Shown here piece by piece: positions 1-48,686 of a stretch of 48,686 nt of DNA. The number at the start of each line of letters is the position of its first letter. Position 1 is the first letter of the stretch. The translations under genes were made by a program, and so were the position numbers. The DNA is from a virus (lineage: Duplodnaviria; Heunggongvirae; Uroviricota; Caudoviricetes): the IMG/VR virus record IMGVR_UViG_643348546_000001. One strand, given 5' to 3'. The notes under the pieces are model-generated. The model was not told where the DNA came from and made no database searches. It saw only the letters and a program-made list of their open reading frames with translations.

Positions 1-1071
1 TTATTTGATTTCAATTTTGTCCCACTCCCTGCCTCTGTCATCACGATACTGTGATGCCATGGTGTCCGACTTATGCCCGAGAAGATGTTGAGCAAACTTA
101 TCGCTTATCTGCTTCTCATAGAGTCTTGCAGACAAACTGCGCAACTCGTGAAAGGTAGGCGGATCCCCTTCGAAGGAAAGACCTGATGCTTTTCGTGCGC
201 GCATAAAATACCTTGATACTGTGCCGGATGAAAGCGGTTCGCGACGAGTAGATGCAATTATGGTTTCTCCGCCAAGAATCTCTTTGCATTTATCAAGTGT
301 TTCCTTCATTGATATTCCGAGAGCATCAACATGCAATGCTGTTGGGATGGCAATTTTTACGCCTGTTTTGCTTTGCTCGACATAAAGATATCCATCTACG
401 ATATCAGACCACTTCATTTCGCATAAATCACCAACTCGTTGCCCGGTAACAACAGCCAGTTCCATTGCAAGTCTGAGCCAACATGGTAATGATTCTGCTG
501 CTTGATAAATTTTCAGGTATTCGTCAGCCGTAAGTCTTGATCTCCTTACCTCTGATTTTGCTGCGCGAGTGGCAGCGACAGGGTTTGTTGTTATATGGCC
601 TTCAGCTATTGCCTCTCGGAATGCATCGCTCAGTGTTGATCTGATTAACTTGGCTGACGCCGCCTTGCCCTCGTCTATGTATCCATTGAGCATTGCCGCA
701 ATTTCTTTTGTGGTGATGTCTTCAAGTGGAGCATCAGGCAGACCCCTCCTTATTGCTTTAATTTTGCTCATGTAATTTATGAGTGTCTTCTGCTTGATTC
801 CTCTGCTGGCCAGGATTTTTTCGTAGCGATCAAGCCATGAATGTAACGTAACGGAATTATCACTGTTGATTCTCGCTGTCAGAGGCTTGTGTTTGTGTCC
901 TGAAAATAACTCAATGTTGGCCTGTATAGCTTCAGTGATTGCGATTCGCCTGTCTCGGCCTAATCCAAACTCTTTACCCGTCCTTGGGTCCCTGTAGCAG
1001 TAATATCCATTGTTTCTTATATAAAGGTTAGGGGGTAAATCCCGGCGCTCATGACTTCGCCTTCTTCCCAT
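1..1071 (-). CDS. int: Tyrosine site-specific recombinase (integrase), lambda Int type
   Basis: 356-aa ORF; near-identical to remembered lambda Int along the whole length (N-terminal MGRRRSHERRDLPPNLYIRNNGYY, C-terminal HELRSLSARLYEKQ...LLGH...Y catalytic region). Confidence 0.97.
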   Translation of the reverse strand: MGRRRSHERRDLPPNLYIRNNGYYCYRDPRTGKEFGLGRDRRIAITEAIQANIELFSGHKHKPLTARINSDNSVTLHSWLDRYEKILASRGIKQKTLINYMSKIKAIRRGLPDAPLEDITTKEIAAMLNGYIDEGKAASAKLIRSTLSDAFREAIAEGHITTNPVAATRAAKSEVRRSRLTADEYLKIYQAAESLPCWLRLAMELAVVTGQRVGDLCEMKWSDIVDGYLYVEQSKTGVKIAIPTALHVDALGISMKETLDKCKEILGGETIIASTRREPLSSGTVSRYFMRARKASGLSFEGDPPTFHELRSLSARLYEKQISDKFAQHLLGHKSDTMASQYRDDRGREWDKIEIK

Positions 1072-1267
1072 TTCTGATCCTCTTCAAAAGGCTACCTGTT
1101 ACTGGTCGATTTAAGTCAACCTTTACCGCTGATTCGTGGAACAGATATTCTCTTCCATCCTTAACCGGAGGAGGGAATATCCTGCATTCGCGCACCCATC
1201 GACGAACTGTTTCAAGGCTTCTTGGGCGTCGCTGGCGAGCGTTCCACTCCTGAAGTGTCAAGTACAT
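1049..1267 (-). CDS. xis: Excisionase
   Basis: 72-aa ORF overlapping the int start as in lambda; sequence MYLTLQEWNARQRRPRSLETVRRWVRECRIFPPP matches lambda Xis. Confidence 0.95.
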   Translation of the reverse strand: MYLTLQEWNARQRRPRSLETVRRWVRECRIFPPPVKDGREYLFHESAVKVDLNRPVTGSLLKRIRNGKKAKS

Positions 1268-1561
1268 CGCAAAGTCTCCGCAATTACACGCAAGAAAAAA
1301 CCGCCATCAGGCGGCTTGGTGTTCTTTCAGTTCTTCAATTCGAATATTGGTTACGTCTGCATGTGCTATCTGCGCCCACAGCATCCAGTGGTCATAGCAG
1401 TCGCTGATGTTCTCGGCTTCGATAACTCTGTTGAATGGTTCTCCATTCTATTCACCTGTAACTCGGAAGTGCATTTATCATCGCCATAAAACAAAACTCG
1501 CCGTAGCGAGTTCAGATAAAAGAAAACCCGCATGACCTGCCCCCACGATTAGATACAACAC

Positions 1562-9157: not shown

Positions 9158-10293
9158 AGAGATTCTCGTTTTTTATAAAATTCAACAACTGTATCTGCTT
9201 TTACATTTAGCAGTACGCCTGCTTCCCTTAATGGTAATTGTTGAGACATTGCTTTGGAAATTATTATATTCGTAAGTTTTGGACTGTTACGAACAGGTAA
9301 TGTGTTAAAGAAAGAACCACCATTAGATTCTTTTTTGGGCTTATTGTAAGCTTGATCTTTAATTATCTCCAAAGTGTTTCTTTCTATCAAATCTAATTGT
9401 AACGCTTTGATTGCACAAGCGAAATCACTAACCTTAAATAACTTAGAAACCTCTTTTACTCGATAATAATTATTATCGCTGGATGCATTAAGCCAGAAAG
9501 ATTTGAAGAGATTATCAGGCATTAAGATTTCAGCAGCAACTTTATTACAAAAAGATTCTATGTTTTTTTCTGTGTCCCACCCAGAGACTCCATCGACTCC
9601 AAGCCAAAGATGAGCCACCTCATGAAATAATGTAAATACCTGCGCAGATAACGCGTCCGAGCTATTTACAAAAATGATCGGAGCAACGCTATCAGATATA
9701 CAGAAACCACGAAACTCTCGCGTGTCAAGTTTTCTTTTATTATTATTACCCACAACACCATTCTTGAAAACTAATACGCCAGTGTCTTCTATTAATTTTG
9801 CCACTTTAGAAAAATAGCTCTCAAAAGTGACATTTTTTATCTCTTTTTGTATATCAAAATGTATTGTGTTTGCTATGTCTGTAGCAACAACCTTATAATT
9901 TAATTTTCTATTAAATTTAAATTTACCAATAAAATCGAGTGGATCATCATTACCATTTTCTCTTAAATAGTCTTTGTACCACTCAAGTTTATATTCTATA
10001 TCATAGTAAACATCAAAAAAATCTTTTCCTAACTCACGGCTATTTATAGCTTGCCTTAAGTCAGGGATCTTGGGTTTGGCTGGAGTTGGTGGCGTTTCAA
10101 GAAATAAAAAACCGAAAGGGATTCCTCCAATTTTTGCCAGTTTTTCTGCTGCGGATTTACTTACCACTCCGTTAAGAAATTTATTAATCTTTTTGGGCAT
10201 GACTTGGTCAGCAAGAGTTTCGATAGAAACTCCTTGAGAATTTGCTATCCAATCAATCATCTTCCTAGACAATTGAAATTCAACCGCTGCCAT
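9154..10293 (-). CDS. HTH-domain / ImmA-IrrE-family (COG2856-like) zinc metallopeptidase protein
   Basis: 379-aa ORF; HExxH motif (FHEVAHLWLG) in the middle, HTH-like N-terminal segment; AGGTGA RBS 4 nt before the ATG; very AT-rich. Confidence 0.65.
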   Translation of the reverse strand: MAAVEFQLSRKMIDWIANSQGVSIETLADQVMPKKINKFLNGVVSKSAAEKLAKIGGIPFGFLFLETPPTPAKPKIPDLRQAINSRELGKDFFDVYYDIEYKLEWYKDYLRENGNDDPLDFIGKFKFNRKLNYKVVATDIANTIHFDIQKEIKNVTFESYFSKVAKLIEDTGVLVFKNGVVGNNNKRKLDTREFRGFCISDSVAPIIFVNSSDALSAQVFTLFHEVAHLWLGVDGVSGWDTEKNIESFCNKVAAEILMPDNLFKSFWLNASSDNNYYRVKEVSKLFKVSDFACAIKALQLDLIERNTLEIIKDQAYNKPKKESNGGSFFNTLPVRNSPKLTNIIISKAMSQQLPLREAGVLLNVKADTVVEFYKKRESL

Positions 10294-10422
10294 GTTATCA
10301 CCTAGTTAAAAAAAACTATTATTCAACAATTATTGTTGTGCACCTGATAGCTAACGTCAAGCCTAATTTATTGCCTTACTACAGTAAGCTGAAAAGCGAA
10401 GTGCATAATTTTGTTCTGATTT

Positions 10423-11115
10423 CTACCCATGCTTTCTATATGTCTGCGGCATGCTCCCGATGACTTTCCCGAAGATGAACACGCGGTTCATCTCGTCTTT
10501 CTCGATCGGGTCCCACGGTGAGTAGCTCTTGTTATCAGAGATAACCAGCAGCTTATCCTTCATCATTTGCAGGCGTTTTACATGGGCGGTGTCGTCATAC
10601 AGAAACGCATAGATACCATCACCGTCGAAAGATTTAACCGTGATATCAACGAACAGCAGATCACCTGGTTCGATCGTTCCTGACATGCTGTCACCACGCA
10701 CGTTAATGATGCGGATATTTTCCGCCTTCCTGCCATCGAACATGTGACGAGCATCGTCAAACGAGTATTCAACCGAGCGTAGAACTTCTACAAACTCACG
10801 GTTGATTACACCCGGCCCGGCACTGACTTCTATATCAAGAACGTCAATTTTGAAGTATTTGGAATGGCTGACAGCAGGCTTCCCTGATTGTTGACCGTCA
10901 TTTCTCATCGGGCCTATGCCTGAAGAGAGCCATTCTGTTCGAACACCCAATGCATTAGCTATTTCAACAATTTTTGTTGAGCCGCGCGCGTTGCCGCTTG
11001 TCAGTCTCCAGATTGTGGGTTGAGCTACGCCAGACGCCTTTGCAAGAGCGCCTTGAGACATTCCAGATTGTTCCATCGCTAGATTTAAGCGATCAGCAAG
11101 AGTTTCTTTTTTCAT
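10423..11115 (-). CDS. cI: CI-like prophage repressor (HTH + S24 LexA-like autopeptidase domain)
   Basis: Start assigned to the ATG at 11115 (the longer ORF starts with TTG); N-terminal HTH (LADRLNLAMEQSGMSQGALAKASGVAQPTIWRL), C-terminal Ser/Lys dyad context (RGDSMSGTIEPGDLLFVD ... KRL); not lambda cI by sequence; mRNA appears leaderless from PRM. Confidence 0.85.
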   Translation of the reverse strand: MKKETLADRLNLAMEQSGMSQGALAKASGVAQPTIWRLTSGNARGSTKIVEIANALGVRTEWLSSGIGPMRNDGQQSGKPAVSHSKYFKIDVLDIEVSAGPGVINREFVEVLRSVEYSFDDARHMFDGRKAENIRIINVRGDSMSGTIEPGDLLFVDITVKSFDGDGIYAFLYDDTAHVKRLQMMKDKLLVISDNKSYSPWDPIEKDEMNRVFIFGKVIGSMPQTYRKHG

Positions 11116-11225
11116 AAGTTTTAATTTATACGCTTGCGTATTGATGGTCAAAACACGTTTTGCTATTGCTTGGATTAATACGCATTGCTATTATTCATTC
11201 ATTGCAATACCAATAGGAATTGATA
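11116..11225. promoter_or_regulatory. Divergent PRM/PR promoters with operator repeats (OR)
   Basis: PR (plus strand): -35 TTGCTT 11166-11171, 17-nt spacer, -10 TATTAT 11189-11194. PRM (minus strand): -35 TTGACC (11144-11149), 17-nt spacer, -10 TAAATT (11122-11127), placing the transcript start about at the cI ATG. Palindrome TACGCTTGCGTA 11129-11140 and TTGCTATTGCT-type repeats. Confidence 0.6.
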
Positions 11226-11453
11226 ATGACAAATCAAACCATTCAACTCGCAATCAGTATTACAGGCAGTCAAAAACGACTGGCAGATCTATGCGGTGTA
11301 GCCCAACCCACAGTTTGGCGTTGGCTACACGGTGGCGGAATTGATGCCCGCTATGTAATGAAAATTGTCTCAGCCACTGGTGGAAAGATTAAACCAGCAG
11401 ATATTCGTCCCGACCTCGCACCATTGTTTAACGCGAGTAATTCTGCCGCCTAA
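11226..11453 (+). CDS. cro: Cro/YdaS-like HTH regulator
   Basis: ATG at 11226 after AGGA; HTH-like QKRLADLCGVAQPTVWRWLHGG; first gene of the rightward operon opposite the repressor. Confidence 0.8.
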   Translation: MTNQTIQLAISITGSQKRLADLCGVAQPTVWRWLHGGGIDARYVMKIVSATGGKIKPADIRPDLAPLFNASNSAA

Positions 11454-11477
11454 ACTGCGGCGTTAACTGATAAGGCA

Positions 11478-12023
11478 ATGACTATGCAACCACTTACATA
11501 CCAACAGACTAGCGGATTTAGCCCGACTGCGGTGATAAATCGTTCTCAAACAAAACAGGTGGCAGGCCACGAAAAAATCCGTGATGCCGTCCGCGCCTGG
11601 TCGGCTGTAGATAATCAGGATGTCGTTGCCACACTCATTGTGAATGAGTATCGGGAGCAGGGCGGCGGCACCATCGATTTCCCTGATGATGTCAGCCGTG
11701 CACGCCAGAAGCTGTTCCGCTTCCTCGATAACAAATTCGATTCTGAAAAATACCGAAATAACGTGCGTGAACTGACCCCGGCAATTCTGGCGGTACTACC
11801 GCTGGAATATCGCGGTTACCTGGTTGAGCAGGATAGCTTCATGGCTAGGTTGGCTGAAATGGAAAAGGAACTCAGTGAGGCAAAACAGGCTGTCATTCTC
11901 AACGCACCACGCCACCAGAAACTGAAGGAAATTAGTGAAGGTATTGTATCGATGTTTCGTGTGGACCCAGATCTGGCTGGTCCATTGATGGCGATGGTTA
12001 CTACCATGCTGGGGGCGATATGA
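11478..12023 (+). CDS. YdaT-family protein (CII-position regulator)
   Basis: 181-aa ORF; NEYREQGGG...RELTPAILAVLPLEYR parallels remembered Rac YdaT (EEYLRQGGG...QKLIPAILAILPRELR). Confidence 0.6.
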   Translation: MTMQPLTYQQTSGFSPTAVINRSQTKQVAGHEKIRDAVRAWSAVDNQDVVATLIVNEYREQGGGTIDFPDDVSRARQKLFRFLDNKFDSEKYRNNVRELTPAILAVLPLEYRGYLVEQDSFMARLAEMEKELSEAKQAVILNAPRHQKLKEISEGIVSMFRVDPDLAGPLMAMVTTMLGAI

Positions 12024-12109
12024 CAGGTTCAGAAATGGCGAAAGCCGGTCTGCTGGAACAGAACCGACTTTCAGGTGCAAATCGTAACACACTCATTGCG
12101 GGAGGAATT

Positions 12110-13039
12110 ATGGCAAACACTGCTGAGATATTCAATTTTCCAGTGCCGGATGCGGCACAAAAGGAGCCGCGCGTGGCAGATCTCGATGATGGTTATACGC
12201 GCATTGCAAATGAGTTGCTGGAAGCTGTGATGCTGGCCGGATTAACACAGCACCAGCTTCTGGTCTTCCTGGCTGTCATGCGCAAAACATATGGCTTTAA
12301 TAAAAAACTGGATTGGGTGAGCAACGAGCAACTGTCCGGATTGACCGGGATATTACCGCACAAGTGTTCTGCTGCAAAAAGTGTTCTGGTAAAGCGTGGG
12401 ATTTTGATTCAGAGCGGGCGGAATATCGGTATTAATAATGTGGTCAGTGAATGGTCAACATTACCCGAATCAGGTAAGAAAAATAAAGTTTACCTGAAAG
12501 AGGTAAATTTACCTGAATCAGGTAAGAAAAGTTTACCCAAATCAGGTAAAGGCGTTTACCCGAATCAGGTAAACACAAAAGACAAACTAACAAAAGACAA
12601 TATAAAACCTTTTTCGTCCGAGAATTCTGGCGAATCCTCTGACCAACCAGAAAACGATCTTCCTGTGGTGAAACCAGATGCTGCAATTCAGAGCGGCAGC
12701 AAGTGGGGGACAGCAGAAGACCTGACCGCCGCAGAGTGGATGTTTGACATGGTGAAGACCATCGCACCATCAGCCAGAAAACCGAATTTTGCAGGGTGGG
12801 CTAACGATATCCGCCTGATGCGTGAACGTGACGGACGTAACCACCGCGACATGTGCGTGCTTTTCCGCTGGGCATGCCAGGACAACTTCTGGTCCGGTAA
12901 CGTGCTAAGTCCGGCCAAACTCCGCGACAAGTGGACCCAACTCGAAATCAACCGTAACAAGCAACAGGCAGGCATGATAGCCAGCAAACCAAAACTCGAC
13001 CTGACAAACACTGACTGGATTTACGGGGTGGATTTATGA
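12110..13039 (+). CDS. O: Replication initiator O (chimeric: non-lambda N-terminal origin-binding domain, lambda-like C-terminal P-interaction domain)
   Basis: ATG at 12110 after GGAGGAATT; C-terminal about 130 aa match lambda O (SENSGESSDQPENDL...TNTDWIYGVDL); N-terminal half differs; iterons embedded in the gene. Confidence 0.9.
   Translation: MANTAEIFNFPVPDAAQKEPRVADLDDGYTRIANELLEAVMLAGLTQHQLLVFLAVMRKTYGFNKKLDWVSNEQLSGLTGILPHKCSAAKSVLVKRGILIQSGRNIGINNVVSEWSTLPESGKKNKVYLKEVNLPESGKKSLPKSGKGVYPNQVNTKDKLTKDNIKPFSSENSGESSDQPENDLPVVKPDAAIQSGSKWGTAEDLTAAEWMFDMVKTIAPSARKPNFAGWANDIRLMRERDGRNHRDMCVLFRWACQDNFWSGNVLSPAKLRDKWTQLEINRNKQQAGMIASKPKLDLTNTDWIYGVDL
12461..12615 (+). repeat. Replication origin: five 18-19 bp iterons (TTTACC[C/T]GAA[A/T]CAGGTAA[A/G] type) followed by an AT-rich segment
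   Basis: Iterons at 12461-12477, 12489-12507, 12508-12526, 12532-12550, 12555-12573, each an internal inverted repeat TTACC..GGTAA, then the A-rich tract CACAAAAGACAAACTAACAAAAGACAATATAAAACC. Confidence 0.85.
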
Positions 13040-13737
13040 AAAACATCGCCGCACAGATGGTTAACTTTGACCGTGAGCAGATGCGTCGGATCGCCAACAA
13101 CATGCCGGAACAGTACGACGAAAAGCCACAGGTACAGCAGGTAGCGCAGTTCATCAACGGTGTATTCAGCCAGTTGCTGGCAACTTTCCCGGCGAGCCTG
13201 GCTAACCGTGACCAGAATGAACTGAACGAAATCCGCCGCCAGTGGGTGCTGGCTTTTCGGGAAAACGGGATCACCACAATGGAACAGGTTAACGCTGGAA
13301 TGCGCGTAGCCCGTCGGCAGAATCGACCATTCCTGCCATCACCCGGGCAGTTTGTCGCCTGGTGCCGGGAAGAAGCATCCGTTAACGCCGGGCTGCCAAA
13401 CGCCAGCGAGCTGGTTGATATGGTTTACGAGTATTGCCGGAAGCGTGGCCTTTATCCGGATGCAGAGTCTTATCCATGGAAATCAAACGCGCACTACTGG
13501 TTGGTTACCAACCTGTATCAGAACATGCGGGCCAATGCGCTGACTGATGCGGAATTACGGCGCAAGGCTGCCGATGAACTGACTTGTATGACCGCGCGAA
13601 TTAATCGTGGTGAGGCGATACCTGAACCAGTAAAACAACTTCCTGTCATGGGCGGTAGACCACTTAACCGGGCTCAGGCTCTGGCGAAGATCGCAGAAAT
13701 CAAAGCTAAGTTCGGACTGAAAGGAGCCAGTGTATGA
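13036..13737 (+). CDS. P: Replication protein P (DnaB helicase loader)
   Basis: 233-aa ORF near-identical to lambda P (MKNIAAQMVNFDREQMRRIANNMPEQYDEKPQVQQ...). Confidence 0.96.
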   Translation: MKNIAAQMVNFDREQMRRIANNMPEQYDEKPQVQQVAQFINGVFSQLLATFPASLANRDQNELNEIRRQWVLAFRENGITTMEQVNAGMRVARRQNRPFLPSPGQFVAWCREEASVNAGLPNASELVDMVYEYCRKRGLYPDAESYPWKSNAHYWLVTNLYQNMRANALTDAELRRKAADELTCMTARINRGEAIPEPVKQLPVMGGRPLNRAQALAKIAEIKAKFGLKGASV

Positions 13738-41722: not shown

Positions 41723-44700
41723 GTGAATATGGCAGTAAAGATTTCAGGTGTACTGAAAGACGGTGCAGGTAAACCGGTACAGAACTGCACAATCCAGCTG
41801 AAAGCAAAACGTAACAGCACCACGGTGGTGGTGAACACGGTGGCATCTGAAAATCCGGATGAAGCAGGGCGTTACAGCATGGACGTTGAGCACGGCCAGT
41901 ACAGCGTTATTCTGTTGGTGGAGGGATTCCCGCCGTCACATGCCGGGACCATCACCGTGTATGAAGATTCTCAACCGGGTACGCTGAATGATTTTCTCGG
42001 TGCCATGACGGAGGATGATGCCCGTCCTGAGGCACTGCGCCGTTTTGAACTGATGGTGGAAGAGGTGGCGCGTAACGCGTCCGCAGTGGCACAGAACACG
42101 GCAGCCGCGAAGAAGTCAGCCAGCGATGCCGGCACATCAGCACGTGAGGCGGCAACCCATGCGACTGATGCTGCAGGCTCAGCACGCGCAGCCAGCACGT
42201 CAGCCGGACAGGCCGCTTCGTCGGCTCAGTCAGCGTCTTCCAGCGCAGGAACGGCATCAACAAAGGCTACTGAAGCATCAAAAAGTGCTGCCGCTGCAGA
42301 GTCCTCAAAAAGCGCGGCGGCCACCAGTGCCGGTGCGGCGAAAACGTCAGAAACGAATGCTGCAGTGTCACAAAAATCTGCAGCTACTTCTGCATCCACC
42401 GCGACCACGAAAGCGTCAGAAGCTGCCACCTCAGCCCGGGATGCGGCGGCCTCAAAAGAGGTAGCGAAATCATCAGAAACGAACGCATCATCAAGTGCCA
42501 GTAGTGCAGCTTCCTCGGCAACGGCGGCAGGAAATTCCGCGAAGGCCGCAAAAACGTCTGAGACGAATGCGGATAACAGCGCACAGGCGGCAGCAGACTC
42601 ACAAACTGCATCGGCAAACTCCGCGACAGCAGCCAAAAAATCAGAAACCAACGCGAAAAATAGCGAGGCAGCAGCAAAGAGCAGCGAAACCAACGCTAAA
42701 GCCAGCGAAACTAATGCTAAATCCAGTGAAACAAACGCGGCGAAATCTGCGGCGGACGCACTTAATTATCGCAACCAGGCCCAGGGTATTGTTGGTACTA
42801 ACATCGGTTTGGGATCATCACCGCGTGATTGCTCTGACATCTCAGGAAATCCATCAGGTTATATTGGCTTTATGCGCATCATGGCTGATGCAACAGGTTT
42901 CCCGTCTATTGCATCCGGTGAAAGCAGTCTTACGGGGTTTATTAGTCAGGTAGATGGAACTCCAGCGTATACAGGTGTATTTCAGGGATGGACTACTCGC
43001 TCGCTTTATACCTATCGCTGGAGTCCGACAACAGGCCCGCAATGGACACGCCACGCAAGAAAAGATGAGGTTATCCGATTTCAGCGTTCAAGCAACACAA
43101 GAACTGTCATTTTATCTACTGACGTTCAGGCTGACGGCTGTTACTTACAGGTTGATGCTGACGGTCAGTGGGGCGCGTTTAACCCTAAAGCTGGTAGATG
43201 GCAACCGCTCGCAGTTGCACAAGGTGGCACAGGGGCGAATGATGCAAGTACAGCGCGCTCTAAACTTGAAGTCATGTTTGAAGCAAAAACTGGCCTTGAT
43301 GCGAATACGAACTTAAACGATATAAAAGGTACTACAGCCGGTTTTTATTACCAACCAATGTCTGCCAACGCAAAGCCAGAACTAAATTACCCGATACAGC
43401 TTGCGGGTGCACTGATGGTTTTAAAGGACGGGGCTAATGTTGGGTACTCATGTATTCAGATTTATTATGTATACAATAACCCAAGAATCTCATATAGCCG
43501 TACATACAATGGTGGTTCTGACACATGGTCAGACTGGGTGAAAAATGTATCAACTGAAAGGGTTGATGATTGGACTAGCGAAACATGGATATATAACCAT
43601 GATAAATCCATGCGCCTGGGTTTAACCGGATCAACGTGGGGGTGTTACAGCGACACACAAAAAAAATGGATACCGCTTGATGTTTCTCATGGTGGTACTG
43701 GTGCGGCAACTGTTGATGGTGTCAGAACGAATCTTGGCTTAGGTAGGAACAACAGCCCTCAACTTAACAGTCTATTTCTTGATAGATATAGTGATTCGAC
43801 CAATACATACACATCTAGTGGAATTCTCCATACAAGACTGTTAGCAACTGACAGCACTGTGCGTCTTGGTGCTGATATGTATGTTGAAACTTTATCAAAT
43901 GAGCCAGGTCAATTAACAATAAGGTTTACATACGATGGTTCAACTGGTGCTTCAAAATATCTAAACCTTAACTCAGAAGGTAATTTAATTGTAGATAGTG
44001 CGATACTGAAATCAACGGTTGAAAAACCTTTACAAATAAGGAGCGCTAACCCAGCAATAAGATTTAATGAAACAGATCGCCCGGCTAACACGCCTACTTA
44101 TACTCTCATTGCTAATGCTGGCGACTGGTTTATTCAGAAACGCGATTATGATGATGCCGGAAGCGTTAGTAACGCAATTGCATATAATTTCGCAAACGAC
44201 AGAATTGATGTGCAAAATCTTAAAGCGTCTGGGTTAATTACAGCTAACTCAGGAATCGCAACATTAACAGGTCATGACTGGAACGCTCAGCATACTGATA
44301 ACGTCGACAAATTTAGACCAATTGCAGGCAGTACAAACGGCCCGGCAGGCTCTATGGTTCTTGGCGGCATTCATGTTCAATTTAGTAAAAATTATGCTGT
44401 GCAGTTCGGAGGCCGCAATTCCGGTTTTTGGGGAAGAACAATTGAAAATGGAACGACGCAGGAATGGAAGAAATTACTAACAGTAGACGATCTCAATTCA
44501 TCTACCGCTCTTGCTGTCAGGTCATTAACCACATCTAACCCGATAAAATCTGGCGGAGGGCGGATTGATGTCCTTGGAAGCACGTCAGACTATAGCAAAA
44601 TGGATTGCTTTGTACGTGGGTTTGATAGCACCGGTAATTCTCTCGCGTGGGCGTTGGGTTCATCAGTCGGCGTAAGTAAGATGCTGTCGCTAAAAAATTT

Positions 44701-45484
44701 CTTTAGCGGAGCTGAGATACTGCTAAATGGTAATGACGGCGCGGTTCAACTCAAAACAGGTGCTGTTAACGGTGCTAAAGCGCAGGCGCTCACTATCAAC
44801 AAGGATGAGGTTAACTCAACTGTTGATTTAACTCTTACAAAACAAACAGGGACTGGAAATCGTTTTGTTTTACAGAACTTAGGTAATACAGAACTATCAT
44901 TTGCCGCAAAAGTATGGGGATCAAGTGATCGACAAAACGTTTTTGAGGTTGGAACGTCTGCTGCGTATCTGTTTTATGCGCAAAAAACGTCAGCAGGCCA
45001 GTTGTTTGATGTAAATGGCGCTATTAATTGCACAACGCTGAATCAGTCATCAGACCGCGACCTTAAAGACGATATTCTCGTTATCAGCGACGCGACGAAA
45101 GCAATCCGTAAAATGAACGGATACACCTACACGCTCAGGGAAAACGGGATGCCTTATGCTGGCGTTATTGCACAGGAAGTAATGGAGGCGATACCAGAAG
45201 CTGTGGGATCGTTTACTCATTATGGTGAAGAGTTGCAAGGTCCGACCGTTGACGGCAACGAGCTACGCGAAGAAACTCGCTATCTTAATGTTGACTACTC
45301 CGCCGTGACGGGTTTACTTGTTCAGGTCGCCCGTGAAACAGATGATCGCGTTACCGCGCTGGAAGAGGAAAACACAACGCTACGTCAAAATCTGGCAACA
45401 GCAGGCACCCGGATCAGCACTCTGGAAAATCAGGTAAGCGAACTGGTTGCACTTGTCCGGCAGTTAACAGGAAGCGAACATTGA
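41723..45484 (+). CDS. stf: Side tail fibre protein Stf with C-terminal intramolecular-chaperone (peptidase S74-like) domain
   Basis: 1253-aa ORF; N-terminal about 130 aa match lambda Stf (MAVKISGVLKDGAGKPVQNCTIQLKA...); long Ala/Ser/Thr-rich KxSETNA repeat region; C-terminal SDRDLKDDI...GYTYTL...LEEENTTLRQ resembles self-cleaving chaperone domains of endosialidase / L-shaped tail fibres. Confidence 0.88.
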   Translation: MNMAVKISGVLKDGAGKPVQNCTIQLKAKRNSTTVVVNTVASENPDEAGRYSMDVEHGQYSVILLVEGFPPSHAGTITVYEDSQPGTLNDFLGAMTEDDARPEALRRFELMVEEVARNASAVAQNTAAAKKSASDAGTSAREAATHATDAAGSARAASTSAGQAASSAQSASSSAGTASTKATEASKSAAAAESSKSAAATSAGAAKTSETNAAVSQKSAATSASTATTKASEAATSARDAAASKEVAKSSETNASSSASSAASSATAAGNSAKAAKTSETNADNSAQAAADSQTASANSATAAKKSETNAKNSEAAAKSSETNAKASETNAKSSETNAAKSAADALNYRNQAQGIVGTNIGLGSSPRDCSDISGNPSGYIGFMRIMADATGFPSIASGESSLTGFISQVDGTPAYTGVFQGWTTRSLYTYRWSPTTGPQWTRHARKDEVIRFQRSSNTRTVILSTDVQADGCYLQVDADGQWGAFNPKAGRWQPLAVAQGGTGANDASTARSKLEVMFEAKTGLDANTNLNDIKGTTAGFYYQPMSANAKPELNYPIQLAGALMVLKDGANVGYSCIQIYYVYNNPRISYSRTYNGGSDTWSDWVKNVSTERVDDWTSETWIYNHDKSMRLGLTGSTWGCYSDTQKKWIPLDVSHGGTGAATVDGVRTNLGLGRNNSPQLNSLFLDRYSDSTNTYTSSGILHTRLLATDSTVRLGADMYVETLSNEPGQLTIRFTYDGSTGASKYLNLNSEGNLIVDSAILKSTVEKPLQIRSANPAIRFNETDRPANTPTYTLIANAGDWFIQKRDYDDAGSVSNAIAYNFANDRIDVQNLKASGLITANSGIATLTGHDWNAQHTDNVDKFRPIAGSTNGPAGSMVLGGIHVQFSKNYAVQFGGRNSGFWGRTIENGTTQEWKKLLTVDDLNSSTALAVRSLTTSNPIKSGGGRIDVLGSTSDYSKMDCFVRGFDSTGNSLAWALGSSVGVSKMLSLKNFFSGAEILLNGNDGAVQLKTGAVNGAKAQALTINKDEVNSTVDLTLTKQTGTGNRFVLQNLGNTELSFAAKVWGSSDRQNVFEVGTSAAYLFYAQKTSAGQLFDVNGAINCTTLNQSSDRDLKDDILVISDATKAIRKMNGYTYTLRENGMPYAGVIAQEVMEAIPEAVGSFTHYGEELQGPTVDGNELREETRYLNVDYSAVTGLLVQVARETDDRVTALEEENTTLRQNLATAGTRISTLENQVSELVALVRQLTGSEH

Positions 45485-45760
45485 TATCCTTCAAGCCCTG
45501 AAGGAGGCTGTTCCTGGTACGTTCAGACTGTTGCTGAGCTGGAGATCGCAACGGAGGAAGAGACATCGTTACTGACGGCATGGAAGACATATCGGGTGTT
45601 GCTGAACAGTGTTGATACATCAGTAGCACCGGATATTGAATGGCCAGTAGCACCTATAGGGTAAATTCGTAATGATTACCTAAATACGTTATTCTTTTGT
45701 TAAAAAAGTGATTTTGCTATAGGTAGGGAGTATGTTCTTGGATTAAGAATAAAAAATCGC

Positions 45761-45790
45761 CATGAAAGAGCTTCATGGCGAGTACATAAA
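45761..45790 (-). terminator. Putative intrinsic terminator (minus strand)
   Basis: 9-bp stem CGCCATGAA / TTCATGGCG with a 5-nt loop, followed on the minus strand by ATTTTTTATT. Confidence 0.4.
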
Positions 45791-46524
45791 CGTACAAAAT
45801 GTGATGAAAGTAGAGTGGCGTAAGCCACAATATTAAGATATGACAATAGCGAAGAAAAGTAAATAACATTTTATGGACGTTTAATTGTTAATTATAAAAA
45901 CTAGAGTGCCCGATATTGTTTATCTTGCTTTAAAATAATGTACTCAAACCAAATTTTTGAGCTAAAAGCTCAAATAATATAAATGCAATGATAATGTTTA
46001 ATAAGACAATTAGCTTGCTTTGTATTTTCATTTCGGAATACTGTTAAGTAACTTTGATGATCCTAACAATAGATCGGAATTTTCTTAGAGTCAATGGTCA
46101 CTGTTTTTGCTTGCAAAGCAAATGTTTTGGTGGTTATAAGTTGTCTTAATATAGTCACGCATGCAACTTGTTCCATGCGGAGATTAAAGATTGGAATATA
46201 ACGCGAAGATGGAATTAAATTACATTTGCAATAATCAATTTATTATTACTCAATAATTACCGATATTATTATTGTAAATTAATCATTAGAGTGCAAAAAG
46301 AAATGTAACGGCAAAATAAGAGGACGATAGCTGAGAAAAAAGCGTGCTTTCCCAATCTGGGGCAAATCACGTCTGAATGACACCTGAAAACAGGTGGTAG
46401 CCTCAAGAAGGCTTGGAATATTCTTCTTTAATGTTATGTAATTCATTGATTTTTCGTGTACAATTTTAAGACATTTATTCCAAGAGAAATTTTTAACTCT
46501 TTGATTTTTCGACTCTGTATCATC

Positions 46525-46585
46525 GGTCTCGAAAACCGGAGTAGGGGCAACTCTACCGGGGGGTCAAATCCCCCTCTCTCCGCCA
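46525..46585 (+). other. 3' segment (about 61 nt, anticodon stem to CCA-proximal end) of a tRNA-Ser gene, with one T-loop substitution; probable integration-site remnant
   Basis: GGTCTCGAAAACCGGAGTAGGGGCAACTCTACCGGGGGGTCAAATCCCCCTCTCTCCGCCA matches the remembered 3' two-thirds of E. coli serU (CGA anticodon) except GGGGGTTCAAATC to GGGGGGTCAAATC; the 5' acceptor/D-arm is absent. Confidence 0.7.
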
Positions 46586-47169
46586 CTTTATCAATGACTT
46601 ATCTCCCGACTTCCCGCCTTGCTTTTCCTAAACAGAACAATCGTAGAATATTCTTGAAGGGTTAGATCGTCACTGTTTTCTGTTCGATACTGTGACATTC
46701 AGCACTTGATTCGCTATGGATCTGACAGGAAGGTTTTGAGCGAAAATTTGCAGTTATTCAGTCGTTTTCTTATCGGTCACCATTATTCTTTTAGACATTG
46801 ATCCTACAAAGCTGCCGCAAAGTTGGTGGTGGGAACTGAAGTTGCGTAGAGAAGGGGTCAATACCCGGAGGCAAACATGGGCTGGCAAAAGTGTAGCGGT
46901 ATTAGGCGCAGCTATTTAGCCTAGTTATGTTTTATGAAAACTTGATATCATATAAGTGTCTTACTTATTGGCTGTAAATAAGTTTTTCCTAAGGAATTGT
47001 TTCTTGAGTATCATTTGTAACTGTAACGGAATTTATAATCCTTTGCTTTATTGTTACGGTATTTTTTATTACACCCTATTTTTTATGTGGTTTTTTATAC
47101 TGACGTTTGGCAAAGTGAACTTTATATGCATATACTTCATCCTGGTTTCAGTTAAGTTGGGTGGATGAT

Positions 47170-47913
47170 ATGGCAACTACATGTTCAGTTATATTGATTT
47201 TGGAGTCCTTTGATGTTTATTTCGGAAAAGAGAGTGTGTTTCTGGAGAGAGGTTCATCTGTACTTGTCGACTCTAGCTCTAGAGATTTTTTCCTGACATA
47301 TCCTGAAAGAGTGATAGTGGCGGATTTTGGCGCTGAGTTTATTAGTCGCTATTTGAAAGCTAATAACTTAAGGGATATTTCTGATTGTAGGGAATATCCA
47401 TCTTATTTAAAAATAAACTTTGCTGACTTCAGTTTAATTAAAGGATTAATTAGTTGGGCTAATCACTGTGCTGAATACATAGAAATTTTTGATGAGTCTA
47501 TTGCTTTTACATGTCTCTCTGCATTTTCTTCTGAAAAACAATTTGGAGTATTTCTGTTTGAATGTTTGAAAAGCACAGAGGCTAAAGTTAAAACGATTAT
47601 TCATACGGATTTATCTGCACCATGGCGTCTTAAGGATATATCATCAAGATTATATCTCAGCGAAAGTTTACTAAAGAGGAAATTGAAAGAAGAGGGGGTA
47701 TCATTCAGTAAGATCATACTTGATGAAAGGATGCAAATGGCTGAATATTTACTCAGCACTCGTTGTTATCCTATTAGTAAAGTAGCTAAGGTCTGTGGTT
47801 ATGCCAGTGTCTCATACTTTACTTATGTATTTAGACGTTATTTTGGTGTTTCTCCAAGTCAATACTCTCAGAGGAGTTCAGAAAGTAAAATTCTTACTCA
47901 CCAGGGAATCTGA
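47170..47913 (+). CDS. AraC/XylS-family transcriptional regulator (AppY/EnvY-like; AT-rich, horizontally acquired)
   Basis: ORF 47161-47913, ATG at 47170 preferred (GGTGGA RBS); C-terminal double HTH typical of AraC family (SKVAKVCGYASVSYFTYVFRRYFGVSPSQY); AT-rich codon usage. Confidence 0.85.
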   Translation: MATTCSVILILESFDVYFGKESVFLERGSSVLVDSSSRDFFLTYPERVIVADFGAEFISRYLKANNLRDISDCREYPSYLKINFADFSLIKGLISWANHCAEYIEIFDESIAFTCLSAFSSEKQFGVFLFECLKSTEAKVKTIIHTDLSAPWRLKDISSRLYLSESLLKRKLKEEGVSFSKIILDERMQMAEYLLSTRCYPISKVAKVCGYASVSYFTYVFRRYFGVSPSQYSQRSSESKILTHQGI

Positions 47914-47954
47914 TCATTGTTCTTGCCCCCTTATTTCCAGACAGGGGGTGTATC

Positions 47955-48420
47955 TTAAGTTAACGTTACCCGCTGACGTCGATATTCTCGCGGAGAGCGA
48001 TAACCCAACGCACTGTGCGGATGGTTTTCATTGTAATGATCGATCGCCACTGCAAGATTATGCAATGCCGTTCTTACATTCGGTTTCGGCATGAACGCGA
48101 TGTAGTCTTCCTTCATCGTTTTCACGAACCTTTCTGCCATTCCATTACTCTGAGGACTGCTGATTGCCGTTGTGCAGGGCTCCAGATTCAACTCTCTGGC
48201 GAACTGCCATGTTTCATGCGCTCTATACGCTGAACCGTTATCTGTCAGCCACTGGATGGACTGTTCCGGTACTTTATCGCCAAAGCGTTTTTCTATCGCT
48301 CCTAACATGACATCCTGCACTGTCGCTTTATCGTAACCTCCCGTGCTTGCGGCCCAGTCTATGGCTTCACGATCGCAACAGTCCAGGGCGAACGTAACAC
48401 GCAGTTTTGAATCGCCACGG
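47955..48420 (-). pseudogene. 5'-truncated IS3-family (IS2-group-like) transposase OrfB fragment
   Basis: C-terminal DDE-domain segment ([14 protein letters not shown]...[11 protein letters not shown]...[14 protein letters not shown]) resembles remembered IS2 InsD; similarity continues upstream of the first Met to about 48420 with no start codon. Confidence 0.75.
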
Positions 48421-48464
48421 GTTTAACAGACACCTCAGAGTCATTTAAGATGGCTTAAAGAGAG

Positions 48465-48686
48465 GTGCCCATGAGCGGTAAGCGTTATCCCGAAGAGTTT
48501 AAAACTGAAGCAGTCAAACAGGTTGTTGATCGCGGTTATTCTGTTGCCAGCGTTGCAACACGTCTCGATATCACCACCCACAGCCTTTATGCCTGGATAA
48601 AGAAGTACGGTCCGGATTACTCCACTTTTTCATCAAGCCAATCCGCCCACCACTGCATCATTTCTCTGCGCTTATCGAGATACTGA
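48465..48686 (+). pseudogene. IS3-family transposase OrfA, probably disrupted after about 50 codons
   Basis: N-terminal HTH region MSGKRYPEEFKTEAVKQVVDRGYSVASVATRLDITTHSLYAWIKKYGPD is typical of IS3-family OrfA; the remaining about 20 residues are atypical and end at the window edge. Confidence 0.6.

Follow-up and report, generated by a model that had tools for sequence, protein, structure and literature searches.

A near-identical copy of the acid-resistance regulator gene patE as b-region cargo of a lambda-type prophage

The right end of the 48,686-nucleotide stretch of lambda-type prophage DNA analysed here (the window) carries an intact gene which, judged by its sequence, is an ortholog of patE and a near-identical copy of an already characterised phage-borne acid-resistance switch. 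We put the probability at close to nine in ten that its product is an activator of the YdeO/GadW/AppY type, carried as independently expressed cargo in the b region of a lambda-type phage inserted at attB-lambda. This reading builds on the identity of the protein, its position in the phage genome, a patchy and prophage-bound distribution and the anatomy of the flanking remnants, all of which are shown. For the function of the present copy we rely on published work on the 99%-identical protein of strain EDL933.

Sequence and relatives of the regulator

The gene lies on the plus strand at 47170..47913 (RefSeq WP_000246055.1). Its open reading frame extends from a GTG start (47161-47913), and the RefSeq start is the ATG at 47170, which gives a protein of 247 residues. 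The original prediction of an AT-rich AraC-family regulator gene between a tRNA-Ser fragment and IS remnants holds in all its elements: the reading frame is intact, the Pfam domains are present and the GC content is 0.348 (GC3 0.271), against 0.509 for the remaining prophage by composition count. Both HTH_AraC (E=1.3e-16) and HTH_18 (residues 161-238, E=8.9e-16) scored above the Pfam gathering score, and the closest solved structure is the DNA-binding domain of GadX (3mkl; residues 137-238, E=2.3e-24). Together these matches describe the C-terminal domain of about 100 residues with two helix-turn-helix motifs that characterises AraC/XylS regulators. The full length of the protein also matched PHROG 1450 (E=3.9e-94), a phage protein family listed with 'unknown function'.

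The protein had been described as AppY/EnvY-like. Membership of the AraC family stands and AppY aligns over the full length (28.4% identity); however, the protein is closest to YdeO (34.7%) and GadW (33.5%), both over the full length, and the match to EnvY is confined to the C-terminal domain. Identification as YdeO itself was rejected, since the score of 148.7 bits against NCBIfam model NF007407 is far under its equivalog cut-off of 348 bits and the identity is 34.7%; the regulator is therefore a paralog of YdeO.

Comparison with the O157:H7 protein (strain 86-24, at the Sp1 position and equivalent to ECs_0287 of Sakai) gave 245 identical residues out of 247, and the two proteins fall in one 90% cluster. 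The two differences lie in the linker region, where the present protein has E131 and E137 and the O157 protein has glycine at both positions (E131G, E137G). ECs_0287 is the sole AraC-type gene within Sakai Sp1. We equated it with Z0321 of EDL933 from the literature and from the offset between Z and ECs numbering, which is constant at 34 at two points (Z0314/ECs_0280 and Z0321/ECs_0287), Z0314 being a tail fibre gene of CP-933H. Z0321 is described as a 'putative regulator (prophage CP-933H)' of O-island 8 that is RpoS-dependent and highly expressed in EDL933 (PMC2907692), and PatE is encoded by z0321 on OI-8 (PMC10877973). At the nucleotide level, the DNA segment holding patE (hereafter the module) is 99.1% identical to Sakai Sp1 over 46523-48391.

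Functional statements on PatE are drawn here from reviews and citing papers. In these, PatE (Z0321/ECs_0287) is reported to activate the gadE/hdeAB acid-resistance genes (Bender et al., 2012, via PMC10877973), and in EDL933 it is reported to bind the hdeA promoter, to be expressed in an RpoS-dependent manner (PMC10877973, PMC2907692) and to have phenotypes both as a mutant and on over-expression (PMC10877973). A 'PatE homolog' over-expressed in EcN (bioRxiv 10.1101/2025.08.01.668021) may or may not correspond to the present gene. The proposal that regulators of this type are found at prophage ends and control acid-resistance or virulence genes is thus in agreement with the roughly 99% identity to PatE (PMC10877973). 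A check for target genes to the right of the regulator had also been suggested. There are none, since only about 230 bp of prophage remain beyond the window before the core bio genes; the known targets of PatE (gadE, hdeAB and the LEE) sit elsewhere on the chromosome.

Upstream of patE, an AT-rich region (46864..47169, plus strand, 34% GC), delimited by composition and a promoter scan, is a candidate promoter region. It contains a sigma-70-like site, TTGGCA-18-TATACT (47107-47136), which agrees with the consensus at 10 of 12 positions and lies 34 bp 5' of the ATG; this site can be regarded only as a candidate, since the scan of this region showed no enrichment over shuffles. No terminator was called 3' of patE, where an IS end begins 2 bp beyond the stop codon.

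Position in the prophage and the remnants around patE

The window opens with a lambda-type int gene (356 residues, 1-1071), and at its other end the gene order is stf, a tfa fragment, the module, sib, the attR core and ybhB. Reading beyond the window in genome L001, the lambda P arm and sib and the attR core TTTTTTATACTAA lie about 230 bp past its end, followed by ybhB-bioA. Rather than the edge of an island, the segment lies in the b region of a prophage of lambda type inserted at attB-lambda. The same arrangement is found in phage ev099 (tfa, module, sib, attP, int; 98% identical), and the phage genomes mEp332 and PhiR70_1 also carry the module between tail fibres and attP-int; among 50,697 phage records it occurs in four, two of which are ev099 under two accessions. 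The module lies within the phage genome, with the tail fibre genes on one side and attP/attR on the other, has a GC content of 0.30-0.35 against 0.51 and is absent from most related phages, all of which are features of a moron. Considering this position, the ev099 order and the IS junctions, the suggestion of prophage right-end cargo altered by IS-mediated rearrangement proved correct.

To the left of the module, the 3' fragment of a tfa (tail fibre assembly) gene (45533..45664, plus strand) lies directly 3' of the gene for a 1253-residue side tail fibre protein (41723-45484). RefSeq annotates a pseudogene 'missing N-terminus' at the equivalent position in genomes L001 and L002, and the fragment is 83% identical to the tfa fragment in genome L007. 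A permissive Rfam search gave a sub-threshold IS009 match at 45424-45624, which has no bearing on the regulator. The AT-rich spacer that follows (45665..46328, 29.5% GC) holds no annotated gene and was delimited by composition and by comparison with other E. coli prophages, where its first 580 bp or so are often found 3' of tfa genes.

The next 535 bp (46329-46863) match the right prophage/chromosome junctions beside yodB/zinT in MLI114 and O111:H8 1074-2, with identities of 98.5% and 96.8%, and are colinear with true serU attR junctions. Within this match, 46329..46523 (plus strand) corresponds to the phage (P) arm found in the attR of lambdoid prophages that integrate at serU. It is followed by the 3' 62 nt of the tRNA-Ser(CGA) gene serU (46524..46585, plus strand), which run from the anticodon stem to CCA, form the att core or identity segment and agree with K-12 serU (anticodon CGA) at 61 of 62 positions. 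The predicted tRNA-Ser fragment was thus found just to the left of the segment for which it was claimed; it is a fragment only, since ARAGORN finds no intact tRNA in the whole 48.7-kb window. A sub-threshold Rfam match to 'plastid psbI-rps4' is this fragment itself. The remaining 278 bp (46586..46863, plus strand) are core E. coli chromosome, namely the serU-yodB intergenic DNA immediately 3' of serU; with the tRNA fragment they (46524-46863) are 96.8% identical to K-12 MG1655 2043190-2043529, a site that holds no prophage in K-12. serU itself occupies a different place on the chromosome. Homology with Sakai Sp1 begins near 46521-46523, at the tRNA fragment, whose end is 585 bp from the start of patE.

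To the right of patE, the 3' 492 bp of ISEc48, an IS3-family element, lie on the minus strand (47916..48407; 96.8% identity to annotated ISEc48) and comprise the C-terminal part of a 5'-truncated orfB with rve/rve_3 domains (Pfam). The remaining reading frame spans 47955-48320, the RefSeq pseudogene extends to 48407, and the equivalent fragment in Sakai is annotated 'ISEc48 partial'. The truncation was caused by insertion of a second IS3-family element, of which the left 209 bp (48408..48616, plus strand) remain. On plasmid p548a they match the left end of an IS3-family copy at 100% identity, and that copy has a matching inverted repeat at its other end. The terminal inverted repeat of the second element, TGAATCGCCACGG, starts at 48408, inside ISEc48; the element contains an orfA fragment (48471-48616) with an HTH_Tnp_1 domain (Pfam) and is cut at 48616. 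A single inverted element was rejected as the source of both remnants, because the orfA fragment has no match in ISEc48 and its inverted repeat begins within that element. The remnants are on opposite strands and do not form the complete IS3 organisation of orfA and orfB in one orientation between terminal inverted repeats. This is in agreement with the original observation that the truncated minus-strand orfB and the plus-strand orfA cannot belong to one intact element; they derive from two distinct family members, and both are dead remnants, not functional elements.

The last 70 nt of the window (48617..48686, minus strand) are not IS sequence; they come from the 3' end of a tyrosine integrase gene of the IntS type, with the stop codon at 48617-48619. 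Alignment with strain 673 gave 99.7% identity over 48407-48700 (BLAST), with similarity visible by eye to about 48714. In that strain the same sequence is the end of a complete intS adjoining tRNA-Arg, and the junction between the integrase stub and the IS remnant is exactly the same. In the present prophage roughly 15-30 bp more of the intS remnant lie beyond the window, and next come lambda sib, the P arm and the attR core. IS junctions and one IS-adjacent deletion variant are visible in the copies compared.

Proposed function, origin and alternatives

Rather than being a conserved core gene with the same neighbours in all E. coli, patE was found in 653 of 5426 complete E. coli genomes (about 12%), always at prophage right ends, with four contexts among the copies sampled: attB-lambda, thrW (Sp1), argW/intS and a DLP12-like remnant. 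The carriers come from commensal, avian, porcine and environmental sources and are not confined to O157:H7. A scan of GTDB species representatives for a close homolog outside E. coli gave only Paenibacillus AraC proteins at 23-24% identity, so it points to no donor species or native locus.

By extension from published work on EDL933, patE would be expressed in stationary phase, dependent on RpoS, with transcription starting in its own AT-rich upstream region, the C-terminal double helix-turn-helix would bind the hdeA promoter, and expression of gadE, gadBC and hdeAB would rise, from which better survival of the lysogen at low pH is proposed to follow. In LEE-positive hosts, the same work leads us to expect lower expression of type III secretion genes. 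PatE would act in trans, on the core acid fitness island and not on adjoining genes.

Three other accounts of the gene were weighed against this one. The original prediction had allowed for an island edge, in which case the regulator would be cargo of a genomic island integrated at a tRNA-Ser gene. This fits the AT-rich DNA, the flanking IS remnants and the tRNA-Ser 3' fragment 585 bp 5' of the gene. However, what is left of the tRNA is a fossil attR rather than an active integration site: a complete attR junction copied from serU surrounds it, while the real serU is elsewhere, the 48.7-kb window holds no intact tRNA and no island integrase (only the lambda-type int and the 70-nt stub), and the segment lies inside the prophage boundaries and within sequenced phage genomes, so that we give an island edge almost no credence. 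A gene that is silent and decaying, dragged along with IS debris and without present function, might be expected among such truncated neighbours (the tfa fragment, two IS fragments and the integrase stub). AT-rich DNA like that of patE is, moreover, typically silenced by H-NS. Even so, decay is improbable: although the genes around it are decaying, patE has kept an intact reading frame, with 98-100% conservation, across about 650 genomes and in three or more sequenced phage genomes, and in EDL933 the ortholog shows high, RpoS-dependent expression (PMC2907692) and has phenotypes when mutated or over-expressed (PMC10877973). Somewhat less probable still is a regulator that chiefly serves the phage, acting on tail fibres, lysogeny or superinfection control, with the host acid effect as cross-talk. 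The gene always lies beside tail fibre genes, is kept in plaque-forming phages and belongs to a PHROG family of 'unknown function'; but most lambda-like phages do without the module, which is therefore dispensable for the phage, and patE survives in degraded remnants such as Sp1 that have no functional tail genes. The published targets are host genes (PMC10877973), and the paralogs YdeO, GadW, GadX and AppY are all host acid-stress regulators (PMC10057817).

As to origin, the serU attR junction with its 278 bp of core DNA at the start of the module and the IntS stub at its end suggest capture by aberrant excision followed by swaps of integration modules. A lambdoid prophage at serU would have excised aberrantly and carried along its attR junction, 278 bp of the chromosome and, probably, patE and the ISEc48 DNA next to them. 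Recombination would then have moved the module among lambdoid phages that differed in their integration modules; one of the intermediates would have had an IntS/argW-type integrase, the 3' stub of which persists. On its right side the module would have been shortened by insertion of an IS and by deletions adjacent to IS elements. Three integration systems would have left their trail in the 2.4 kb around patE (the serU attR with 278 bp, the IntS/argW stub and lambda sib/attP), the regulator having entered the lambdoid pool through a specialised-transduction-type excision at serU and spread by integration-module swaps, and still being carried by the plaque-forming ev099, mEp332 and PhiR70_1. We give this history an even chance. 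The module starts inside serU in all 523 genomes that carry the upstream region (at least 80% of the query). No genome joins an intact serU to patE, and a synthetic query of K-12 serU plus module found no genome matching anything 5' of tRNA nucleotides 20-29; the joining of patE to the serU flank could therefore postdate the capture and reflect an unrelated illegitimate event at 46863/46864. A search for the DNA left of the Sp1 tRNA fragment as the P arm of a second serU phage returned GIY-YIG gene contexts, none clearly at serU. It is also conceivable, although unlikely, that the embedded serU attR is still a usable site, at which serU-specific integrases or homologous recombination could relocate or rearrange the prophage. 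The P arm (195 bp), core (62 nt, 61/62) and flank (278 bp) are kept at 97-98% identity, and many strains have serU prophages able to supply Int and Xis. An attR alone, however, needs an attL partner and Xis, and in the four sampled contexts the junction is merely carried along, with no rearrangement seen at the site.

PatE itself is already known and the present copy is an ordinary one whose history is legible, which leaves current understanding unchanged. The serU-junction and integration-swap history may be new, as we did not find it described in searchable papers. If true, the trail of three systems would be direct sequence evidence for the entry of an acid-resistance regulator through serU and for swaps of integration modules, and the embedded junction is a tidy natural example of host-adjacent DNA turned into phage cargo. 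PatE-type regulators let a phage reprogramme a core host stress regulon, and a gain in acid survival of the lysogen bears on stomach passage and infectious dose. As patE is present in about 12% of genomes and also in phages propagated on laboratory strains of E. coli (C and K-12), ordinary lysogeny may be able to pass on acid-resistance conversion.

Comparison with known systems

The closest counterpart is the PatE module of CP-933H/Sp1, which shares 1.87 kb comprising the serU fragment, the 278-bp flank, the upstream region, the gene and the ISEc48 3' fragment, and which likewise lies at the right end of a lambdoid prophage directly before attR. Sp1 is, however, a 10.6-kb remnant at thrW, whereas the present copy sits in a complete lambda-type prophage inserted at attB-lambda. 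The two also differ in the DNA to the left of the tRNA fragment, ISEc48 is truncated 22 bp further in in Sakai, and the second IS fragment and the intS stub are found in the present copy only.

PsrA and PsrB (Z1789, Z2104) are likewise prophage-borne AraC-like regulators of O157:H7 near tail fibre or effector loci; according to PMC10877973 they act positively on gadE and hdeA and negatively on type III secretion, and PsrB reportedly binds the same hdeA promoter region as PatE. They are nevertheless separate genes from patE. A blastn search with patE in O157 genomes gave a single 'distant' match, which places psrA and psrB under the nucleotide identity of about 65% detectable by blastn.

Among host regulators, YdeO and GadW/GadX are the best-scoring relatives (GadX by its DNA-binding domain) and share the gadE and hdeAB pathway, but they are core-genome genes whereas patE is phage cargo. 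AppY, from the cryptic prophage DLP12 of K-12, belongs to the same AraC/XylS subfamily, shares the N-terminal M..VCSV motif, lies just 3' of the tfa gene tfaX, towards the right end of its lambdoid prophage, and provides input into acid resistance (PMC10057817). It differs in having only 28% identity, a regulon that includes hya, app, iraM and others, and a location in another prophage at another site, argU.

With regard to architecture, the lambdoid morons are likewise AT-rich cargo genes between the late genes and att, and patE would share their independent transcription. Like the lambda bio and gal specialised transducing phages, the present prophage has host DNA contiguous with an att junction next to the att region of the phage. 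Unlike in the bio and gal phages, the captured junction is that of serU while the phage now uses attB-lambda, and the captured piece is small and the phage still plaque-forming.

The patE gene and its distribution

The sole long open reading frame of the region runs on the plus strand from a GTG at 47161 to 47913, and RefSeq (WP_000246055.1) instead places the start at the ATG at 47170, giving a protein of 247 amino acids (47170-47913) with an AraC-type double helix-turn-helix (Pfam HTH_AraC, E=1.3e-16; HTH_18, E=8.9e-16). The gene has a GC content of 0.348 (GC3 0.271), compared with 0.509 in the preceding 45 kb. Of the protein's 247 residues, 245 are shared with the one that E. coli O157:H7 strain 86-24 encodes at the corresponding position, and the Sakai counterpart, ECs_0287, is the sole AraC-type gene in Sp1, a lambda-like prophage remnant at thrW. 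According to the literature, z0321 on O-island 8 encodes PatE (PMC10877973), and Z0321 is entered as 'putative regulator (prophage CP-933H)' and as a gene whose expression depends on RpoS (PMC2907692). The Z and ECs numberings differ by 34 both for Z0321/ECs_0287 and for the tail fibre genes Z0314 (in CP-933H) and ECs_0280 (in Sp1). Considering the O157:H7 identity, the placement of PatE in the literature and this equal offset, we conclude that the window gene is patE, a regulator already known and characterised, at 99% identity.

The nearest K-12 proteins are YdeO (34.7%) and GadW (33.5%); AppY reaches 28.4% over the full length, and the similarity of GadX and EnvY to PatE is confined to the DNA-binding domain. 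Against the NCBIfam YdeO model the protein reaches 148.7 bits, well under the 348-bit cut-off, which makes PatE a paralog of the K-12 regulators; its length equals theirs, so truncation is not indicated. A full-length match was also obtained to PHROG 1450 (E=3.9e-94), a phage family labelled 'unknown function'.

Among the 5426 complete E. coli genomes, about 653 contain patE at an identity of at least 95%, and 162 have the exact 45500-48686 arrangement. Four contexts were sampled: attB-lambda (many strains), thrW as in Sp1/CP-933H (O157:H7 and strain Ceylon31), a site next to intS and tRNA-Arg (strain 673), and a DLP12-like remnant with iss (strain LR-33), the setting being a prophage right end in all four. 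The gene is accessory and not a conserved core gene, so the result named originally as a refutation, a core-genome gene with syntenic neighbours in all E. coli, did not turn up. Species-representative genomes of other taxa yielded no close homolog.

Position within a lambda-type prophage

At the left edge of the window is the stop codon of the gene for a 356-aa integrase. Complete genomes that share the window's right end (99.9-100% identity) continue with lambda sib, a P arm of lambda type, the core TTTTTTATACTAA (about 230 bp past the window end) and then ybhB-bioA. The region therefore lies wholly inside a lambda-type prophage at attB-lambda, at the place of lambda's b region. This position is confirmed by the phage genome records Lambda_ev099, mEp332 and PhiR70_1, which hold 46329-48410 (hereafter the module) at 99.2-99.6% identity; in ev099, Lom is followed by the tail fibres, tfa, the module, sib, attP (GCTTTTTTATACTAA), int and xis, the int side being 98.6% identical to window 1-1529. 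Of the two settings originally proposed, prophage right-end cargo is borne out by the attB-lambda location and by the same module in these three phages, and an island edge is excluded by the prophage boundaries and the phage records. To the right there are no target genes, only the core bio operon.

Further features were observed to the left of the module. The side tail fibre gene (41723-45484, plus strand, 1253 aa) has a long, repetitive, Ala/Ser/Thr-rich N-terminal part, and its homologue is split by IS5 in strain PCP06101 and occurs as two open reading frames in strain 673. A sub-threshold Rfam IS009 match (RF02111; 45424-45624, plus strand; E=2e-15), with 71.6 bits where the gathering score is 117, covers the full model length and spans the end of this gene and a tfa fragment. 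The spacer at 45665-46328 (29.5% GC, no annotated gene) contains a strongly hydrophobic 33-aa open reading frame (45930-46031, minus strand; MKIQSKLIVLLNIIIAFILFELLAQKFGLSTLF) and a terminator-like hairpin with an 11-bp stem (45757-45781, minus strand); many other prophages also have its first ~580 bp downstream of their tfa genes. Strain MLI110 carries a large chromosomal rearrangement with an endpoint inside the prophage, since ompC directly adjoins the lysis genes (essD) there, with nuo/yfb genes to the left (11355-13226 of its locus, L001).

The serU junction, IS remnants and integrase stub

Positions 46524-46585 are the last 62 nt of serU tRNA-Ser(CGA), identical to K-12 serU at 61 of 62 positions; ARAGORN found no tRNA gene in the whole window. 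An Rfam 'Plastid-psbl-rps4 3'UTR' match at 46531-46582 (minus strand, 36.3 bits against 68) was rejected as an artefact of this fragment. The stretch 46329-46863 is colinear with the right junction of serU-integrated lambdoid prophages (98.5% and 96.8% identity; strains MLI114 and O111:H8 1074-2) and comprises a 195 bp phage arm, the tRNA segment and 278 bp of chromosome, the latter being the ordinary serU-yodB sequence of K-12, which is prophage-free at that spot. The same junction occurs in ev099, mEp332 and PhiR70_1: a lambda-att phage genome holds the complete attR junction of another integration site, host DNA included. Such a junction would be the expected leftover of aberrant excision of a serU prophage. 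Homology to Sakai Sp1 extends from the tRNA segment to 48391. The match to the upstream region starts inside the tRNA in all 523 genomes that have it; the arrangement expected of the postulated chromosomal ancestor, an intact serU running into patE, was seen in none of them. The serU junction travels together with patE.

On its other side patE is followed by an ISEc48 remnant (IS3 family; 47916-48407, minus strand), 96.8% identical to annotated ISEc48, with rve/rve_3 domains and annotated in Sakai as 'ISEc48, IS3 family, partial'. ISEc48 inserted essentially at the end of patE, because the TGA stop codon is only 2 bp from its terminus (47911-47916), a junction shared with Sakai Sp1. From 48408 to 48616 (plus strand) lies the left end of a second IS3-family element, with the terminal repeat TGAATCGCCACGG followed by an orfA fragment (Pfam HTH_Tnp_1); plasmid p548a has a copy whose left end agrees with it at 100% identity and whose other end has the matching inverted repeat. 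In the window this second element is truncated at 48616. Both remnants are dead fragments. The regulator, tRNA-Ser fragment, minus-strand orfB remnant and plus-strand orfA fragment described originally are all present, and the IS pieces do come from two different elements.

The window closes with 70 nt (48617-48686, minus strand) that represent the 3' end of an IntS-type integrase gene, otherwise lost here, the similarity continuing to 48700 by BLAST and ~48714 by eye (roughly 15-30 bp beyond the window), directly before lambda sib/attR (L001 23118-23215). The end of the second IS coincides exactly with the intS stop codon. In strain 673 (10090-11247 of its locus) intS is complete and adjoins tRNA-Arg, and the same IS-remnant junction precedes it.

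The stub and the strain 673 junction suggest an integration-module swap between lambdoid phages. As reconstructed, the second IS inserted into ISEc48 at 48407/48408, an adjacent deletion afterwards removing 47980-48406 in strain 673. In the simplest reading, which we infer from sequence, an IntS/argW-type lambdoid phage would once have carried the module in its b region, and its integrase would later have been replaced by a lambda-type sib-attP-int module. This history, about as likely as not, would be a moderately interesting evolutionary footnote. No description of the embedded serU junction with host DNA or of the integrase stub was found in the searchable literature; they are a modest addition and define no new kind of system.

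Predicted activity and known counterparts

The function of EDL933 PatE is described in published work, cited through PMC10877973, PMC10057817 and PMC11879457. By analogy, the window protein would be expressed in stationary phase under RpoS, would bind the -132 to -45 stretch of the hdeA promoter, and would raise gadE, gadBC and hdeAB expression, leading to greater acid survival, with several LEE genes expressed less. Its probable target is the core acid fitness island, reached in trans. At 47107-47136, ending 34 bp short of the patE ATG, there is a candidate promoter (TTGGCA-18-TATACT); it is only a lead, since the promoter scan overall was not enriched over shuffled sequence.

The location of patE here, that of a lambdoid right-end moron, is the one PatE has in CP-933H, and AppY in DLP12 and PsrA/PsrB share the same type, which is already known.
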